From the sequence record OR757453.1: a stretch of 64,000 bases of DNA; one strand, 5' to 3'. Below are positions 3,021 to 49,300 of the stretch, in pieces; position 1 is the stretch's first letter, and the number at the start of each line of letters is the position of its first letter. Both the position numbers and the translations under genes were made by a program. The notes under the pieces are model-generated. The model made no database searches and was not told where the DNA came from. It saw only the letters and a list, made by a program, of their open reading frames with translations. The stretch is from Escherichia phage BYEP01.

Positions 3021-3506
3021 ATGGAAGCGATTTTGTTTGAAATGTATATTAGCAGTAATAGTATGTCGTTTGCTAAAGACGTTCCAATTACTGTAGCAGT
3101 AATGATTGATAAGGGTTATTGTGACCCAATGTATCTTGTAGAAAATTTCGTTTCAATGCCAGTTCCAGAAGATGCTGAAATAAAACTTAAAAAGATCGGA
3201 ATTATTGAAACTGTACCAAATATTCCGTTTAGAGCAATTGAAGCATTTACTAAATCCGAATACATTAATGTTAGCGCAGAACAATATAATGATAAGCCTT
3301 TATCTTTTTATTCGTACGATTCACTATATAGTTGGAAAATAGATAAAGGAAATAAATTTATAATTGCAAGTGAAGATGCTTTATCATACTTTATTTCTTC
3401 TATATGGAATAGTTTACATCCAAATTTGCTAAAAATTCATGAATTTGATGATGCTCCTACTGTTGTTTTGGGTAAAGTAAATGAAAGTTCTGAAGAAAAT
3501 GTTTGA
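3021..3506 (+). CDS. mrh: Mrh-like protein (modifier of rpoH phenotype)
   Basis: 161 aa from ATG 3021 with GAGG RBS; position and length consistent with T4 mrh. Confidence 0.45.
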
Positions 3507-3684
3507 ATGGTTCAATAGACCAAACTCAATGTACATTGATGATGGTTGGGTTGAACAAGCAAATAAAGAAATGCAGAACGAACCAGAAGAATGGATGAAA
3601 TCAATGATTAGAATTGAGAAAGAAAAGAAATTAGAACGCTCAGCGCTTAAATTGATGAGAGACATCTATGGGGATAAATCATGA
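3481..3684 (+). CDS. hypothetical protein
   Basis: 67 aa ORF. Confidence 0.3.
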
Positions 3685-3845
3685 ACAGAGATATGACGTT
3701 AGAAGAGGCCAAGGCTAAAGCAAATGAAGCATTGGATTTGCTTCTCAAAATTGGCAGTAAAATGATGGAAGAAAATGAGAAATATATCCAGGAAAACAAA
3801 ATTCCTGACGGCCCATTAGTAGGCAAGAGGAAATCGCATGATTGA
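3681..3845 (+). CDS. hypothetical small protein
   Basis: 54 aa ORF read from sequence; ATGA overlap with previous ORF. Confidence 0.3.
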
Positions 3846-41847: not shown

Positions 41848-42110
41848 TAATTGAGGCCTGAGTATAAGGTGACTTATACTTGTAATCTATCTAAACGGGG
41901 GACCTCTCTAGTAGACAATCCCGTGCTAAATGTGTAGGACTTTGGTTCTACCTAAATGCCTAACGACTATCCCTTTAGGGAGTAGGGTCAAGTGACTCGA
42001 AACGATAGACATCTTGCTTCATCAAGATGGAGATATAGTCTGATCTGTATGGTGACATGCAGCTGGATATAATTCCGGGATAAGATTAACGACCTTATCT
42101 GAACATAATG
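41848..42110 (+). ncRNA. group I self-splicing intron in td, compact, no endonuclease ORF
   Basis: starts TAATTGAGGCCTGAGTATAAGG, contains GGGTCAAGTGACTCGAAACGATAGACA core, ends ACATAATG; 263 nt. Confidence 0.85.
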
Positions 42111-42709: not shown

Positions 42710-42989
42710 ATATAAATCCGACTTTGATGTTAATATTCACCGTGGTACATTTTGGGGAAATTACGTCGGTAAAGATGCTGGCAGCCGGGAGGCTGCCATT
42801 GAATTATTCAAAAAAGATTTTATACGTCGAATTAAATCCGGAGAAATAACTAAAGCACATTTAGAGCCTTTACGTGGAATGAGGCTAGGATGCACATGTA
42901 AACCAAAGCCGTGTCATGGTGATATAATAGCTCATATAGTTAACCGATTGTTTAAAGACGATTTTCAAGTTGAGGACTTATGCAATTAA
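42663..42989 (+). CDS. hypothetical protein, possibly DUF4326-like (nrdA.1 position)
   Basis: 108 aa; C-terminal [12 protein letters not shown] motif. Confidence 0.4.
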
Positions 42990-44413
42990 TTAATGTTATC
43001 AAAAGTAGTGGTGTTTCTCAGAGCTTTGACCCACAAAAAATTATTAAAGTTTTATCTTGGGCAGCTGAAGGAACATCTGTAGATCCTTATGAATTATATG
43101 AAAATATTAAATCATATCTCCGTGATGGAATGACCACTGATGACATTCAGACTATTGTCATTAAGGCTGCTGCGAATTCTATTTCGGTTGAAGAGCCTGA
43201 TTATCAATATGTAGCTGCACGCTGTTTAATGTTTGCTCTTCGTAAGCATGTTTACGGGCAATATGAACCACGTTCATTTATTGACCATATTTCTTACTGC
43301 GTAAATGAAGGTAAATATGACCCTGAATTGTTGTCAAAATATTCAGCAGAAGAAATTACATTTTTAGAATCAAAAATTAAGCACGAGCGGGATATGGAAT
43401 TTACTTATTCCGGGGCGATGCAATTAAAAGAAAAATATCTAGTTAAAGATAAAACCACTGGTCAAATTTATGAAACTCCACAGTTTGCATTTATGGCTAT
43501 TGGAATGGCACTGCATCAAGATGAACCTGTTGATAGATTAAAACATGTCATTCGTTTTTATGAAGCAGTATCTACTCGACAGATTTCATTGCCAACTCCT
43601 ATTATGGCTGGTTGTCGTACTCCAACTCGACAGTTTAGTTCATGCGTTGTTATTGAAGCAGGTGATTCGCTGAAGTCTATCAATAAGGCTTCTGCTTCAA
43701 TTGTTGAGTATATTTCTAAACGAGCTGGAATTGGCATTAACGTTGGTATGATTCGTGCCGAAGGTTCTAAGATTAGCACAGGTGAAGTGCGTCATACTGG
43801 TGTTATTCCTTTTTGGAAACATTTTCAGACTGCAGTTAAATCATGCTCACAGGGTGGAATTCGTGGCGGCGCTGCTACTGCTTATTATCCTATTTGGCAT
43901 TTGGAAGTTGAAAATCTTCTCGTTTTGAAAAATAACAAAGGCGTAGAAGAAAACCGTATTCGTCATATGGATTATGGCGTCCAGCTGAATGATTTGATGA
44001 TGGAACGTTTTGGAAAGAACGACTACATTACTTTGTTCAGTCCACATGAAATGGGTGGTGAGCTTTATTATTCTTATTTTAAAGACCAAGACCGTTTCCG
44101 TGAATTATATGAAGCCGCAGAAAAAGACCCTAATATTCGTAAAAAGCGTATTAAAGCCCGTGAACTGTTTGAATTGCTCATGACTGAACGATCAGGAACA
44201 GCAAGGATTTATGTACAGTTCATAGATAATACGAATAACTATACTCCGTTTATTCGTGAAAAGGCACCTATTCGTCAGAGCAACTTGTGTTGTGAAATTG
44301 CTATTCCAACAAATGATGTGAATAGTCAACAAACCCGTTTAATCAAAATTAAGAAGTCGGATGTAGCTAAGTTTTATGAAGCTAATCCTGGCGGTATAAT
44401 TCAAAGCAAATAA
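42980..44413 (+). CDS. nrdA: ribonucleotide reductase large subunit, N-terminal fragment
   Basis: ATP cone; active-site NLCCEIAIPT; ends 28 aa after PTNDVNS in non-NrdA sequence. Confidence 0.85.
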   Translation: MQLINVIKSSGVSQSFDPQKIIKVLSWAAEGTSVDPYELYENIKSYLRDGMTTDDIQTIVIKAAANSISVEEPDYQYVAARCLMFALRKHVYGQYEPRSFIDHISYCVNEGKYDPELLSKYSAEEITFLESKIKHERDMEFTYSGAMQLKEKYLVKDKTTGQIYETPQFAFMAIGMALHQDEPVDRLKHVIRFYEAVSTRQISLPTPIMAGCRTPTRQFSSCVVIEAGDSLKSINKASASIVEYISKRAGIGINVGMIRAEGSKISTGEVRHTGVIPFWKHFQTAVKSCSQGGIRGGAATAYYPIWHLEVENLLVLKNNKGVEENRIRHMDYGVQLNDLMMERFGKNDYITLFSPHEMGGELYYSYFKDQDRFRELYEAAEKDPNIRKKRIKARELFELLMTERSGTARIYVQFIDNTNNYTPFIREKAPIRQSNLCCEIAIPTNDVNSQQTRLIKIKKSDVAKFYEANPGGIIQSK

Positions 44414-45227
44414 AGTACACAGACCGTTAATAATAAATAATCCATAACAAGAGGAAAAGTTATGGATTATTCTAAAATTTACAATAACCTTATTTCTAAA
44501 GCTAAGAATAGAAAATTAGATTGCTATACCGAATCACACCATATTATACCTCTGTGTATTGGCGGTTCTGATACAAAAGAAAACCTGGTAGATTTGACAC
44601 CAGAAGAGCATTACATAGCTCATCAATTATTAGTAAAGATATATCCAGATAATCATAAATTGATATTTGCCGCTAATATGATGTGTGTTTATTCTGAAGA
44701 TAATATTGAACGAAAGAACACCAATAAACGTCATGGGTGGCTTAGAAGAAAATTGGCTATTTCTGTATCTGAAAATAATAAAGGCAAACCGGCTTGGAAC
44801 AAAGGTATTCCTATGTCTCCAGAAGTTAAATCTCGACTTCAAACATCTTGGGTGTTTACATTTCCGGATGGTCATGAGGAAATTCATCGAGGTCTTAACG
44901 AATTTTGTAAAGAGCATAATTTAAATGCATCTGCGATGTCAGCCGTTTGTAAAGGTAAACGGGCGCATCACAAAGGATTTAAGTGTAAGAAATTGGATAA
45001 GATTTCAGAGCTTGATAATTTAGTTTTCGTCAGTAAACCTCATCCAAAGGGATTAAAACCCCATAACTTAATTGCTGTAAAAATAAACGGTATAGAATAT
45101 CAATCAATACATCGAGCATCTAAAGCTTTAGGAATTACTAGAAAAAAGGTAGAAGAATTAAATGAATATTGATTATGAATTTGTAGATGAATTTTACGAA
45201 GATGATGAGTATACTACAATAGAAGTT
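44327..45227 (+). mobile_element. homing endonuclease insertion splitting nrdA
   Basis: about 900 nt between NrdA-homologous segments; contains the HNH ORF; no group I core motifs; stops in all continuing frames. Confidence 0.7.
44462..45172 (+). CDS. HNH homing endonuclease (MobE-like)
   Basis: 236 aa; HNH core ESHHIIPLCIGGSDTKENLVDLTPEEH; AGAGGA RBS. Confidence 0.75.
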   Translation: MDYSKIYNNLISKAKNRKLDCYTESHHIIPLCIGGSDTKENLVDLTPEEHYIAHQLLVKIYPDNHKLIFAANMMCVYSEDNIERKNTNKRHGWLRRKLAISVSENNKGKPAWNKGIPMSPEVKSRLQTSWVFTFPDGHEEIHRGLNEFCKEHNLNASAMSAVCKGKRAHHKGFKCKKLDKISELDNLVFVSKPHPKGLKPHNLIAVKINGIEYQSIHRASKALGITRKKVEELNEY

Positions 45228-46151
45228 ATTGAAAACAGGGGAGAAGTGGGGCTTTGTACCCTTAGCGCATTTGTGTTGGATAACTTCGATTGGCAAGACC
45301 AAGACAAAATTAATGAATTAGCAGAAGTTCAAGTTCGTGCTCTTGATAATCTTTTGGACTACCAAGGATATCCAGTTCCTGAAGCAGAAAAAGCTAAAAA
45401 GCGTCGAAACCTTGGCGTAGGTGTTACTAACTATGCAGCTTGGCTGGCAAGTAACTTTGCTTCTTATGAAGATGCTAACGATTTAACACATGAACTATTT
45501 GAGAGATTGCAGTATGGACTCATTAAAGCATCCATTAAGCTCGCCAAAGAAAAAGGACCTTGCGAATATTATTCAGACACTCGTTGGTCTCGAGGCGAAT
45601 TACCTATCGACTGGTACAATAAAAAGATTGACCAAATCGCAGCTCCAAAATACGTTTGTGATTGGGACGAACTTCGATCTGAACTCAAACAGCATGGAAT
45701 TCGAAATTCTACTTTATCCGCGTTGATGCCGTGTGAATCATCCAGTCAGGTATCTAACAGTACAAACGGTATCGAGCCTCCACGTGGACCAGTCTCTGTT
45801 AAAGAATCAAAAGAGGGTTCCTTTAATCAAGTCGTGCCCAATATTGAGCATAACATAGACCTCTATGATTATACGTGGAAATTAGCTAAGAAAGGTAATA
45901 AACCTTATCTTACGCAGGTAGCTATTATGCTGAAATGGGTATGTCAATCAGCTTCAGCGAATACATATTATGACCCGCAGATTTTTCCAAAAGGAAAGGT
46001 TCCAATGTCTGTAATGATTGATGACATGCTATACGGATGGTATTATGGCATTAAAAACTTCTATTATCATAATACCCGTGATGGTTCTGGTACTGATGAT
46101 TATGAAATAGAAACTCCCAAAGCTGAAGATTGTTCATCCTGTAAATTATGA
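45162..46151 (+). CDS. nrdA: ribonucleotide reductase large subunit, C-terminal fragment
   Basis: aligns with E. coli NrdA from GEVGLCTLSAF to C-terminal CSSCKL; own ATG overlaps the HNH ORF end. Confidence 0.85.
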   Translation: MNIDYEFVDEFYEDDEYTTIEVIENRGEVGLCTLSAFVLDNFDWQDQDKINELAEVQVRALDNLLDYQGYPVPEAEKAKKRRNLGVGVTNYAAWLASNFASYEDANDLTHELFERLQYGLIKASIKLAKEKGPCEYYSDTRWSRGELPIDWYNKKIDQIAAPKYVCDWDELRSELKQHGIRNSTLSALMPCESSSQVSNSTNGIEPPRGPVSVKESKEGSFNQVVPNIEHNIDLYDYTWKLAKKGNKPYLTQVAIMLKWVCQSASANTYYDPQIFPKGKVPMSVMIDDMLYGWYYGIKNFYYHNTRDGSGTDDYEIETPKAEDCSSCKL

Positions 46152-46202: not shown

Positions 46203-46878
46203 ATGAGCACAGTTTTTAATACAAATCCAGTTGATGTTTTAACAGAACCTATGTTCTTCGGTTCAGGTCTTGGAATTGCACGTTATGATATTCAACGACA
46301 TAAGGTATTTGAAGAACTTATTGAACGTTCGCTCTCGTTTTTCTGGCGGCCTGAAGAAGTAAACTTAATGATGGATGCTGCACAATTTAACAAGCTCCCA
46401 GAACACCAAAAATCTATATTTATCAATAACTTAAAATACCAGTCATTGTTAGACTCCATCCAGGGGCGTGCACCATCTGCGGTACTTATGCCATTGCTTT
46501 CAGATCCAAGCCTTGATACATGGGTAGCAACATGGACTTTTAGCGAAACTATTCACAGTCGTTCATATACCCATATCATGCGTAACTTGTTCAATGACCC
46601 TGCTAAGGTATTTGATGAGATTGTACTAGATGAAGCTATCATGAAACGTGCTGAATCTATCGGTCGCTATTATGATGATGTTCTGACTAAAACCCGTGAA
46701 TGGGAAAATGCTAAAGAATTTACAGAACTAGCTAAAGAATCTCCTGATGCTGTTTTTCGTTTAAATCGAGCTATTAAACAAGAAGCCGAAGCTAAACGTG
46801 CTTTAATGAAATCTCTTTACCTCTGTTTGCACGTTATTAATGCCTTAGAAGCTATTCGTTTTTATGTATCTTTTGCGT
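46203..46878 (+). CDS. nrdB: ribonucleotide reductase small subunit, exon 1
   Basis: ends ...RFYVSFA plus one nt at the 5' splice site. Confidence 0.85.
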
Positions 46879-47182
46879 AAAATGCGCCTTTAAACGGTAA
46901 CGTTTATCGAAAACTCCTTTAATTGCTGGAAAGTCCTTTATAGGAAAACTAGCAGCCAAGGTTTTGCTTGCACCTTTAATTAGCATAATATAAATGATTA
47001 TACTTTTAAGAGGATGCACAATTGCAAAGCAAGGTTCAACGACTAGTCTTCGGACGTAGGGTCAAGCGACTCGAAATGGGGAGAATCCCTCTGGGATTGT
47101 GATATAGTCTGGTCTGCATAGTAATATGTAGCAGTTCATAAGAGAACGGGTTGAGAATTAGCGAGCTCAATCGAACATAACG
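46879..47182 (+). ncRNA. group I self-splicing intron in nrdB, compact, no endonuclease ORF
   Basis: 304 nt; core GGGTCAAGCGACTCGAAATGGGGAGAATCCC; ends with G; splicing restores FYVSFACTFNFHKNMEIMEGNAKI. Confidence 0.8.
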
Positions 47183-47685
47183 GTACCTTTAACTTCCATA
47201 AGAACATGGAAATCATGGAAGGTAATGCCAAGATTATGAAGTTCATTGCACGTGATGAGCAGCTTCACCTTAAAGGCACCCAATATATTATTCGTCAACT
47301 TCAATCCGGTACTGATGGCGATGAATGGGTTAAAATTGCTCAAGAGTGTGAACAAGAAGCAGTTGATATTTTCATGGAAGTTAACCGCCAAGAAAAAGAC
47401 TGGGCAGTTCATTTATTTAAAGATGGCGATGTTCCTGGATTAAATACAAATAGCATGTGGAGCTTTATTGATTACTTAACTGTATCTCGTATGAAACAGT
47501 GCGGTCTTCCATGCCCAATTACCGATGCTCCGGTTAAACATCCGTATCCTTGGATTCGTGAATACCTTAATTCTGATAATGTTCAATCCGCGCCACAAGA
47601 AGTAGAACTGTCATCTTACCTTGTTGCACAGATTGATAATGATGTTGATGATAAAGTTATGATGAGTTTTAAAAAATACTTTTAA
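47183..47685 (+). CDS. nrdB: ribonucleotide reductase small subunit, exon 2
   Basis: in-frame continuation; joined product about 392 aa. Confidence 0.85.
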
Positions 47686-47689
47686 GGAG

Positions 47690-47710
47690 TGGGCCGCAAG
47701 GCCCATTTTA
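47690..47710 (+). terminator. hairpin terminator
   Basis: TGGGCC-GCAA-GGCCCA then TTTTATT. Confidence 0.6.
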
Positions 47711-47712
47711 TT

Positions 47713-49300
<1,588 letters not shown>

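Follow-up and report, generated by a model that had tools for sequence, protein, structure and literature searches.

An nrdB group I intron without a homing endonuclease gene in the T4-like Escherichia phage BYEP01

The nrdB gene of the T4-like Escherichia phage BYEP01 (genus Tequatrovirus; sequence record OR757453.1), which codes for the ribonucleotide reductase small subunit, was found to be interrupted by a group I intron of 304 nt (46879..47182, plus strand) that carries no endonuclease gene. It is very probably the IA2 intron of the T-even nrdB lineage, having lost its homing endonuclease gene, I-TevIII, through one deletion of 785 nt from a form of the type found in phage RB3. The window, by which is meant the whole stretch of 64,000 nucleotides that was analysed and to which all positions refer, shares the gene order frd–td–nrdA–nrdB–denA–rnlA with phages T4, RB3, PD112 and fPS-2.

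Boundaries of the intron and the spliced nrdB product

The following features were identified at the nrdB locus:

46203..46878, plus strand: nrdB exon 1, 226 codons, ending ...TTTGCGT (open reading frame list, splice test, T4 join annotation)
46879..47182, plus strand: nrdB intron, group I, IA2-type, 304 nt, without an endonuclease ORF (Rfam RF00028 and blastn)
47182, plus strand: terminal G (omega-G) at the 3' splice site, the only G of a GG pair that restores the frame
47183..47685, plus strand: nrdB exon 2, starting GTACC and including the stop codon (open reading frame list, splice test, protein alignments)

Unspliced, the nrdB reading frame reaches a stop at position 46880 and is picked up again downstream. 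The intron begins with AAAATGCGCC and ends with CATAACG, and joining of the exons in silico rebuilds a Cys codon (TGT) from T46878 of exon 1 and the GT starting at 47183 in exon 2. The ligated junction is predicted as TTTGCGT followed directly by GTACCTTT, with the joined exons reading FYVSFA-C-TFNFHKNMEIMEGNAKI, and the product is an NrdB of 392 amino acids with zero internal stops. This protein was found to align with R2 of E. coli without a gap across the junction (AIRFYVSFACSFAF; AIRFYVSFAC-S/T-F; E 3e-130) and to share 90% identity with spliced T4 NrdB, again with no gap at the junction. The boundaries in the window are those of the annotated T4 nrdB join, with the same exon flanks (TTTGCGT before the intron and GTACC after it) in the window, T4 and RB3, and the insertion site falls between conserved iron-ligand motifs (…LEAIRFYVSFAC… and …ARDEQLH…).

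A covariance search with Rfam RF00028 returned a match at 46862..47131 with a score of 68.7 bits (gathering score 50; E 2.6e-15) that spanned the full length of the model (positions 1-253 of 253). The only other RF00028 match in the 64-kb window was the td intron. The element at 46879..47182 was confirmed as a genuine group I intron, far beyond chance, its identity and boundaries being established directly; it combines the covariance score with the core helices, the U•G pair and terminal G of a group I intron, and restoration of the frame. An earlier note on this DNA, made from the sequence alone, had placed a 304-nt sequence with a group I core at exactly these coordinates, with a U ahead of the 5' splice site, a G at the 3' end, exons whose joining restores the frame and no endonuclease ORF, and all of this was borne out.

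On the plus strand of the intron, no open frame was found to extend beyond approximately 35 codons. Two ORFs on the minus strand (55 aa, 46852..47019; 44 aa, 47036..47170) were considered as genes and rejected, with no match to Pfam or PHROGs for either.

Ribozyme structure and splicing

Helices were assigned from unconstrained MFE folds, one of the precursor and one of the intron alone, from the Rfam cmscan alignment and from comparison of natural variants. The unconstrained fold of the precursor recovers P1, P3, P4, P5, P6/6a/6b, P7.1, P7.2, P8, P9, P9.1 and P9.2, while P2 was recovered by folding the intron alone. The paired strands are as follows:

46875-78 (GCGU, exon) with 46884-87 (GCGC, internal guide), plus strand: P1, 4 bp (MFE fold; invariant in seven natural variants)
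46891-96 with 46901-06, plus strand: P2, GUAA loop (intron-alone fold; covariation)
46914-19 with 47078-83, plus strand: P3 (cmscan, fold, variants)
46924-29 with 46949-54, plus strand: P4 (cmscan, fold, variants)
46934-37 with 46942-45, plus strand: P5 (cmscan, fold, variants)
46955-57 with 47033-35, plus strand: P6 (folds, variants; the cmscan alignment has a 63-nt insert in P6)
46961-67 with 47024-30, plus strand: P6a (folds, variants)
46969-77 with 47009-18, plus strand: P6b extension, former entry point of the I-TevIII gene (folds, variants)
47041-45 (GACUA) with 47105-09 (UAGUC), plus strand: P7 (sequence; conserved GACUA and AUAGUC blocks in the cmscan alignment)
47046-48 with 47053-55, plus strand: P7.1 (folds, variants)
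47059-63 with 47068-72, plus strand: P7.2 (folds, variants)
47084-89 with 47093-98, plus strand: P8 (cmscan, fold, variants)
47114-20 with 47125-31, plus strand: P9, GUAA loop (cmscan, fold)
47134-37 with 47144-47, plus strand: P9.1 (folds, variants)
47149-55 with 47166-72, plus strand: P9.2 (folds, variants)

Within P1, U46878•G46884 forms the wobble pair at the splice site. Across the seven natural variants, both partners have changed in two pairs of P2, one of P5 and one of P9, and the helices are thereby maintained. In the introns of phages SG1 and CJY920, two P2 pairs are altered on both strands (A-U to G-C and G-C to A-U) and one P5 pair is switched on both sides (U-A to A-U), while one P9 pair is altered on both sides relative to T4 and SG1 (G-C to A-U). 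The more distant intron of phage DCP80 has a compensatory change in P7.2 (U-A to C-G) and compensated changes in P9.2. Every difference between the window and the RB3 and T4 introns is located in a loop or compensated. When compared with shuffled sequences, the whole-intron fold showed a modest excess of stability (z -1.93, with 3 of 100 shuffles folding equally well). A search for P10, in which the P1 loop would pair with the 3' exon, gave no convincing candidate; pairing of the P2 region with the 3' exon in the MFE fold of the precursor was set aside as a folding artefact, P2 itself being backed by covariation.

The P7.1/P7.2 region forms a 29-nt insert in the Rfam alignment. Subgroup IA2 was reportedly defined by Michel and Westhof in 1990 by two additional helices, P7.1 and P7.2, lying between P7 and the 3' strand of P3. 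Both are present in this intron, which on that reported definition belongs to IA2. All core helices (P1–P9, with P7.1/7.2 and P9.1/9.2) survive the loss of I-TevIII.

It is most likely that the intron still self-splices through the predicted guanosine-initiated two-step pathway. The transcript would adopt the intact P1-P9 core, with free guanosine bound in P7; cleavage would occur after U46878, and the exons would be joined after G47182 to give an uninterrupted mRNA for the 392-aa NrdB. Splicing of the T4 and RB3 nrdB introns is documented, and T4 intron constructs from which the ORF has been deleted splice well. The arrangement resembles T4 td delta1-3, a homing control (PMC1865063) in which the endonuclease ORF was removed from a peripheral loop and the core left whole, that deletion having been made in the laboratory whereas the one in the window is natural.

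It is very improbable that splicing has been lost, with nrdB now a pseudogene or expressed as two separate polypeptides in the manner of the split nrdA of this phage. The core helices and both splice-site signals are intact, with changes confined to loops or compensated as described above, and the exon sequence adjacent to the intron is undecayed, with 0-5 mismatches per 100 nt against six phages. Exon 2 does have an in-frame ATG at 47206, several database records give the two exons as separate CDSs, and the same phage tolerates a split nrdA, yet the break in nrdB lies between the iron-ligand motifs and, in contrast to the split NrdA, its fragments carry no added tail. The same allele is also present in five other separately named phage isolates.

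Deletion of the I-TevIII gene

The intron was identified by blastn as belonging to the T4/RB3 nrdB lineage, with 96.8% identity to the retained ends of the T4 intron. The introns of RB3 and of Yersinia phage fPS-2 are both 1091 nt long and interrupt nrdB at the same site with the same ribozyme as in the window; they differ in encoding a 269-aa H-N-H/zinc-finger I-TevIII, of which the window lacks the whole gene. The RB3 intron has copies of ACAATTG, a direct repeat of 7 nt, at positions 142 and 927, and multiple alignment together with in-silico deletion showed the intron of the window to be the RB3/fPS-2 intron minus the 785 nt between these copies. Deletion in silico from either the RB3 or the fPS-2 intron yields 306 nt, and the only two differences remaining between that product and the window are a T>C change at 46984 and a 2-nt loss (AT) near 46993. 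The end-points of the deletion are established directly by these alignments, and the following remnants were identified around them:

46989..46996, plus strand: TATAAATG box, remnant of TATAAATA upstream of I-TevIII in RB3 and T4 (alignments)
47009..47013, plus strand: AGAGG, Shine-Dalgarno sequence of the lost I-TevIII, paired with CCUUU at 46973-77 (fold, variants)
47018..47024, plus strand: deletion junction, a single ACAATTG copy in which TTG is the annotated I-TevIII start codon (alignments)
47020..47046, plus strand: last eight codons of I-TevIII and its stop, NCKARFND followed by the stop (RB3 I-TevIII translation and context)

The sequence spanning the junction is GGATGCACAATTGCAAAG. 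In the long form, copy 1 of the repeat ends in the TTG start of I-TevIII and copy 2 lies 27 nt ahead of the I-TevIII stop. The last base of the TATAAATG box has been altered by the 2-nt AT loss; TATAAATA itself we take to be the T4 late-promoter consensus. The 3' codons of I-TevIII have been kept because they overlap the 3' strand of P6a, J6/7 and P7. At its right end the deletion abuts the base with which the 3' strand of P6a opens, and at its left end it spares the whole P6b hairpin, so that no ribozyme helix was touched. A 10-codon ORF created by the deletion (ATG 47014 to TAG 47046, MHNCKARFND) was rejected as a by-product, its ATG lying inside the P6b stem. The I-TevIII coding sequence in the P6 extension is absent, and the window carries an endonuclease-less allele of the T-even nrdB lineage.

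At every difference between the RB3 and T4 introns, found in the loops of P5 and P8, in P6a, in P9 and at the base preceding the terminal G, the window has the RB3-type base and not the T4-type base, which argues for descent from a full-length RB3-like intron and not from the truncated one of T4. T4 has the same intron at the same site, likewise a deletion derivative that does not home by itself, but its 598-nt intron lost only the N-terminal H-N-H part of the endonuclease through a different microhomology-flanked deletion, which left a 97-codon ORF. Some substitutions are peculiar to the T4 intron and absent from the window; they lie in the P5 loop, P6a, the P8 loop and P9. The earlier note had contrasted the window with T4 on the ground that the T4 intron keeps I-TevIII sequence, and had proposed comparison with the T4 and RB3 introns; the contrast is correct, the T4 remnant being a truncated I-TevIII, and the comparison returned a single lineage, with the window being of RB3 type with the 785-nt deletion.

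A nrdB intron with full-length I-TevIII in RB3 was reportedly described by Eddy and Gold in 1991. Robbins et al. 2007 (PMC1865063) give the RB3 intron as carrying full-length I-TevIII and as able to home.

Direction of change

The proposed history is that an RB3-type intron of 1091 nt gave rise to the short intron by a single deletion between the ACAATTG copies, which may have proceeded by slipped-strand or microhomology-mediated illegitimate recombination. The long form has two copies of the repeat and the short form one, a pattern that is compatible with insertion as well as with deletion, and the repeat is not statistically remarkable in an AT-rich intron such as that of RB3, in which 73 different repeated 7-mers were counted. 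Deletion is favoured because the promoter-like box, the sequestered ribosome-binding site and the start codon persist directly upstream of the junction, because the flanks are nearly identical to those of present-day full-length introns, because the T4 (598 nt) and SG1 (418 nt) introns bear other partial deletions with imperfect short repeats at their ends, and because deletions with short direct repeats at their ends are a familiar kind of mutation in T4.

An ancestral empty intron, with I-TevIII having later entered an ORF-less nrdB intron at the tip of P6, appears improbable. The repeat pattern gives no direction, the most divergent nrdB intron found (that of DCP80, from a different genus, at approximately 91% identity) is empty with the same junction, and it is an accepted model that free-standing endonuclease genes invade introns lacking an ORF (PMC2988022). 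However, the sequence directly upstream of the junction already contains a TATAAAT box resembling a late promoter, the Shine-Dalgarno sequence within its hairpin and the TTG with which I-TevIII starts, so that an incoming gene, itself without a start codon or signals, would need to have landed exactly behind pre-existing ones. The flanks in the window moreover differ from those of RB3 and fPS-2 at three positions only, which points to recent derivation, and the T4 and SG1 introns provide known partial-deletion intermediates.

That the short intron is an artefact of assembly or sequencing, produced by collapse between the repeats, is next to negligible in probability. Assemblies may collapse at direct repeats, and the DCP80 record is itself imperfect, with a run of N in exon 1, but a repeat of 7 nt is far below the length needed for such collapse. 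The same junction was found in five other genomes with separate isolate names, and the td intron of the same phage is likewise empty.

With deletion as the preferred direction, the intron can be described as real but ordinary, a late decay stage of a selfish intron that will not surprise a specialist. With it, a selfish-element system that ranks among the best studied gains a natural allele of the end stage. The alleles form a series, in which I-TevIII is complete in RB3 (1091 nt), has lost its catalytic domain in T4 (598 nt), is almost entirely lost in SG1 (418 nt) and is wholly lost in the intron of the window (304 nt). A short direct repeat bounds the deletion at each step, in keeping with the cyclical model of endonuclease invasion, decay and loss.

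Distribution among phages

Approximately 606 phage records were found to contain nrdB at 80% identity or more, and 126 phage records match the junction region, i.e. carry the nrdB intron. The empty junction was identified in 6 of these 126, corresponding to five phages (PD112, CE1, SP21535, CJY920 and DCP80), while approximately 33 of the 126 have the T4-type truncated I-TevIII. The remaining intron-bearing records mostly appear to be of the full-length RB3 type, as judged from the matches listed, which cover the 3' half of the query only and mostly fall in two separate places. No record in the phage collection exceeded approximately 95-96% identity over the nrdB region of the window.

The empty junction occurs in three intron backgrounds and two genera (Tequatrovirus and Gaprivervirus). 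The first background is RB3-like and comprises the window, PD112, CE1 and SP21535; the second is a mosaic with an SG1-like 5' half (CJY920); and the third is approximately 9% diverged (DCP80, Gaprivervirus). PD112 (NC_054928) and CE1 (ON229909) have the same junction in an intron of 304 nt that differs from that of the window at 1 of 304 positions (99.7% identity), and PD112 also has an empty td intron; both phages differ from the window in having an unsplit nrdA, and CJY920 and DCP80 differ in their intron sequence backgrounds. The exons of all five phages are only approximately 94.5% identical to those of the window.

Two histories could explain the shared junction: the deletion may have recurred at this repeat, or it may have happened once, long ago, with recombination afterwards. 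A tentative extension, which we regard as rather doubtful, is that the endonuclease-less intron is a stable form, recurring at ACAATTG or spread by recombination from a single old deletion, and possibly a passenger mobilised in trans. Between approximately 46800 and the last base of exon 2, six other intron-bearing phages differ from the window at 0-5 positions per 100. Larger differences were seen near the 5' splice site (up to 14 per 100 for SG1 and 8-9 for CJY920), and in the 5' portion of exon 1 the differences reach 28 per 100. The low divergence around the intron would fit past co-conversion, in a comparison that comprises intron-bearing phages alone.

Exact-match scans, which detect exact copies only, were performed on two metagenomic collections. 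Zero matches were returned from IMG/VR for a 25-mer and a 21-mer of the junction, and the 21-mer gave one match in JGI metagenomes, an unrelated chance sequence and no true copy. In the records with the empty intron, two nrdB CDSs are annotated and no intron; annotation pipelines report such genes as two separate CDSs, leaving these introns unrecorded. Beyond this point and the allele series, current understanding is unchanged. Introns go unmentioned in the CE1 paper (PMC9978775), and according to a review from 2010 each of the three T-even introns encodes an endonuclease gene of its own (PMC2993671). No publication on an ORF-less nrdB intron was found in literature that did not include Sandegren & Sjöberg 2004 (J Biol Chem 279:22218) and Sandegren et al. 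2005.

Neighbouring endonuclease genes and mobility

Two further elements were identified upstream of the nrdB intron:

41848..42110, plus strand: td group I intron, 263 nt, without an endonuclease gene (Rfam 64.1 bits)
44462..45172, plus strand: HNH endonuclease gene splitting nrdA, MobE-like (Pfam HNH and I-HmuI NUMOD-like domains; PHROG 655)

A splice test of the td intron gave a thymidylate synthase of 286 aa. The nrdA-splitting gene was assigned to PHROG 655, homing endonuclease (E 9e-59), and its product was found to share 45% identity with T4 MobE (E 1e-31). The possibility that it is a transposed I-TevIII was rejected, the similarity to I-TevIII being not significant (E 0.11). The end of the HNH gene lies 1.7 kb upstream of the insertion site of the nrdB intron, and the td intron, the HNH gene and the nrdB intron all lie inside 5.3 kb. 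It had been claimed in the earlier note that the td intron is also empty, that a free-standing HNH gene has invaded nrdA and that the three events sit within 5.5 kb, all of which agrees with these measurements. The combination of empty introns with an HNH-split nrdA, to which the note drew attention, does exist, but it is less unusual than implied given the layouts of fPS-2 and PD112. In fPS-2, nrdA is likewise split by a MobE-like HNH gene and the spacer between nrdA and nrdB is 51 nt, the same locus layout as in the window, with the difference that both intron endonucleases are intact. The spacer in the window is also 51 nt and contains no mobE, which in T4 lies between nrdA and nrdB.

The nrdB intron does not encode a functional endonuclease of its own and in that sense has no autonomous homing. 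Without I-TevIII, intron-less nrdB alleles would remain uncut and the intron would not be mobile by itself. T4 MobE has been shown to mobilise the defunct T4 nrdB intron in trans, with co-conversion extending at most approximately 2 kb (PMC2790892), and the MobE homologue in the window lies within this range of the nrdB intron. The window therefore resembles the trans-homing of T4 in having a defective intron within approximately 2 kb of a free-standing MobE-family HNH gene, differing in that the gene is inside nrdA, as in Aeromonas phage Aeh1, and not between nrdA and nrdB. A cyanophage psbA intron and its free-standing endonuclease are cited as another case of trans or collaborative homing (PMC2988022). 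Co-conversion of the nrdB intron by the nrdA HNH gene is plausible by analogy with such systems, and the intron may ride on gene-conversion tracts begun by the MobE-like gene.

Most carriers of the empty junction have a free-standing endonuclease gene within 2 kb, this being the MobE-like gene in nrdA here and an ORF ahead of nrdB in SP21535 and CJY920. In these two phages and in SG1, a large ORF directly upstream of nrdB is labelled a homing endonuclease in RefSeq. PD112 and CE1 retain the empty nrdB intron with no endonuclease gene nearby, indicating that hitch-hiking is possible but not required for persistence. If mobilisation in trans does take place, neighbouring selfish genes would keep empty introns in T-even phages as their passengers. 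Persistence is simply accounted for by the position of the intron in an essential and conserved stretch of nrdB, which would tolerate exact excision only. Precise deletion of all three introns of T4 gave no detectable phenotype (PMC4371300), and thus no benefit to the phage need be invoked.

The footprint of I-TevIII covers both its cleavage site, 14 and 16 bp upstream, and the intron insertion site (PMC1865063). As the intron splits this recognition site, the allele should resist I-TevIII from co-infecting phages of the RB3 type, and resistance of the intron-bearing allele to cleavage is plausible on these grounds.

Sequence variation of the nrdB intron

Comparison of natural alleles showed the tip of the P6b hairpin (46979..47007) to be the most variable part of the nrdB intron of BYEP01. 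Indels of 2 to 9 nt at this tip disrupt or alter the TATAAATA box in BYEP01 and in phages SP21535 and SG1, while the tip in phages CJY920 and DCP80 carries a 5-nt insertion (TTATA) and an A>C substitution. This variability fits a relaxation of constraint following damage to, or loss of, the endonuclease gene.

An ORF-less nrdB intron was also identified in Escherichia phage DCP80, which is classified as a Gaprivervirus:

3405..3713 of locus L008 (PQ671644), ORF-less nrdB intron of DCP80, 309 nt

This intron shares the ACAATTG junction of the BYEP01 intron, and its changes in P7.2 and P9.2 are compensated. Identity between the two phages was approximately 91% for the intron and approximately 78% for the aligned nrdB-denA region including the intron, with the DCP80 record containing a run of N within nrdB exon 1.

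A mismatch profile of nrdB (46203..47685) was obtained against other intron-bearing phages (L001-L007). Exon 1 shows 7-28 mismatches per 100 nt to these phages across the greater part of its first two-thirds, with the density falling to 0-5 mismatches per 100 nt from approximately 46800 through exon 2; the exception lies near the 5' splice site, where SG1 and CJY920 remain at 8-14 mismatches per 100 nt. The low-mismatch zone around the intron could be a footprint of co-conversion, as read from a comparison within intron-bearing phages.

Introns and endonuclease genes neighbouring nrdB

The following elements were identified in the interrupted td gene (thymidylate synthase) and the split nrdA of BYEP01:

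41848..42110, td group I intron, 263 nt (Rfam, 64.1 bits)
42980..44413, NrdA-a, 477 aa
44462..45172, MobE-like HNH gene splitting nrdA
45162..46151, NrdA-b, 329 aa

The td intron lacks I-TevI, and its predicted splicing joins the td exons to restore a 286-aa Td. The td intron of T4 is 1016 nt in length. The td intron of phage PD112 is likewise empty, whereas that of fPS-2 possesses a full endonuclease gene.

Within the split nrdA locus (42980..46151), the HNH gene overlaps nrdA-b by 11 nt, and the break point falls between the residues that correspond to Cys439 (SNLCCEI) and Cys462 (GLCTLSA) of the E. coli protein. Aeromonas phage Aeh1 nrdA is broken at the same place (PMC3045599), and there, as in BYEP01, the two products possess tails of opposite charge, that of BYEP01 NrdA-a being basic (…RLIKIKKSDVAKF…) and that of NrdA-b acidic (MNIDYEFVDEFYEDDEY…). 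The same arrangement was identified in phages fPS-2, fPS-90, vB_EcoM_112, FL44, F26 and Manna.

A large ORF ends right at the start of nrdB in SG1, CJY920 and SP21535 (positions 1..524 of L004, L005 and L006, respectively), the position occupied by mobE in T4. In BYEP01, PD112 and fPS-2, nothing but a spacer of 51 nt lies at this site. The large ORF exceeds 500 codons in SG1 and SP21535, and that of SG1 is a homing endonuclease according to RefSeq. The nrdB intron is degenerate or empty in all three phages that carry it.

Directly downstream of nrdB lies an ORF with a GIY-YIG domain:

47689..48123, denA (endonuclease II gene; PHROG 1111, E 1.5e-64)

Its position and its match to PHROG 1111 identify this ORF as denA and not as a further homing endonuclease.
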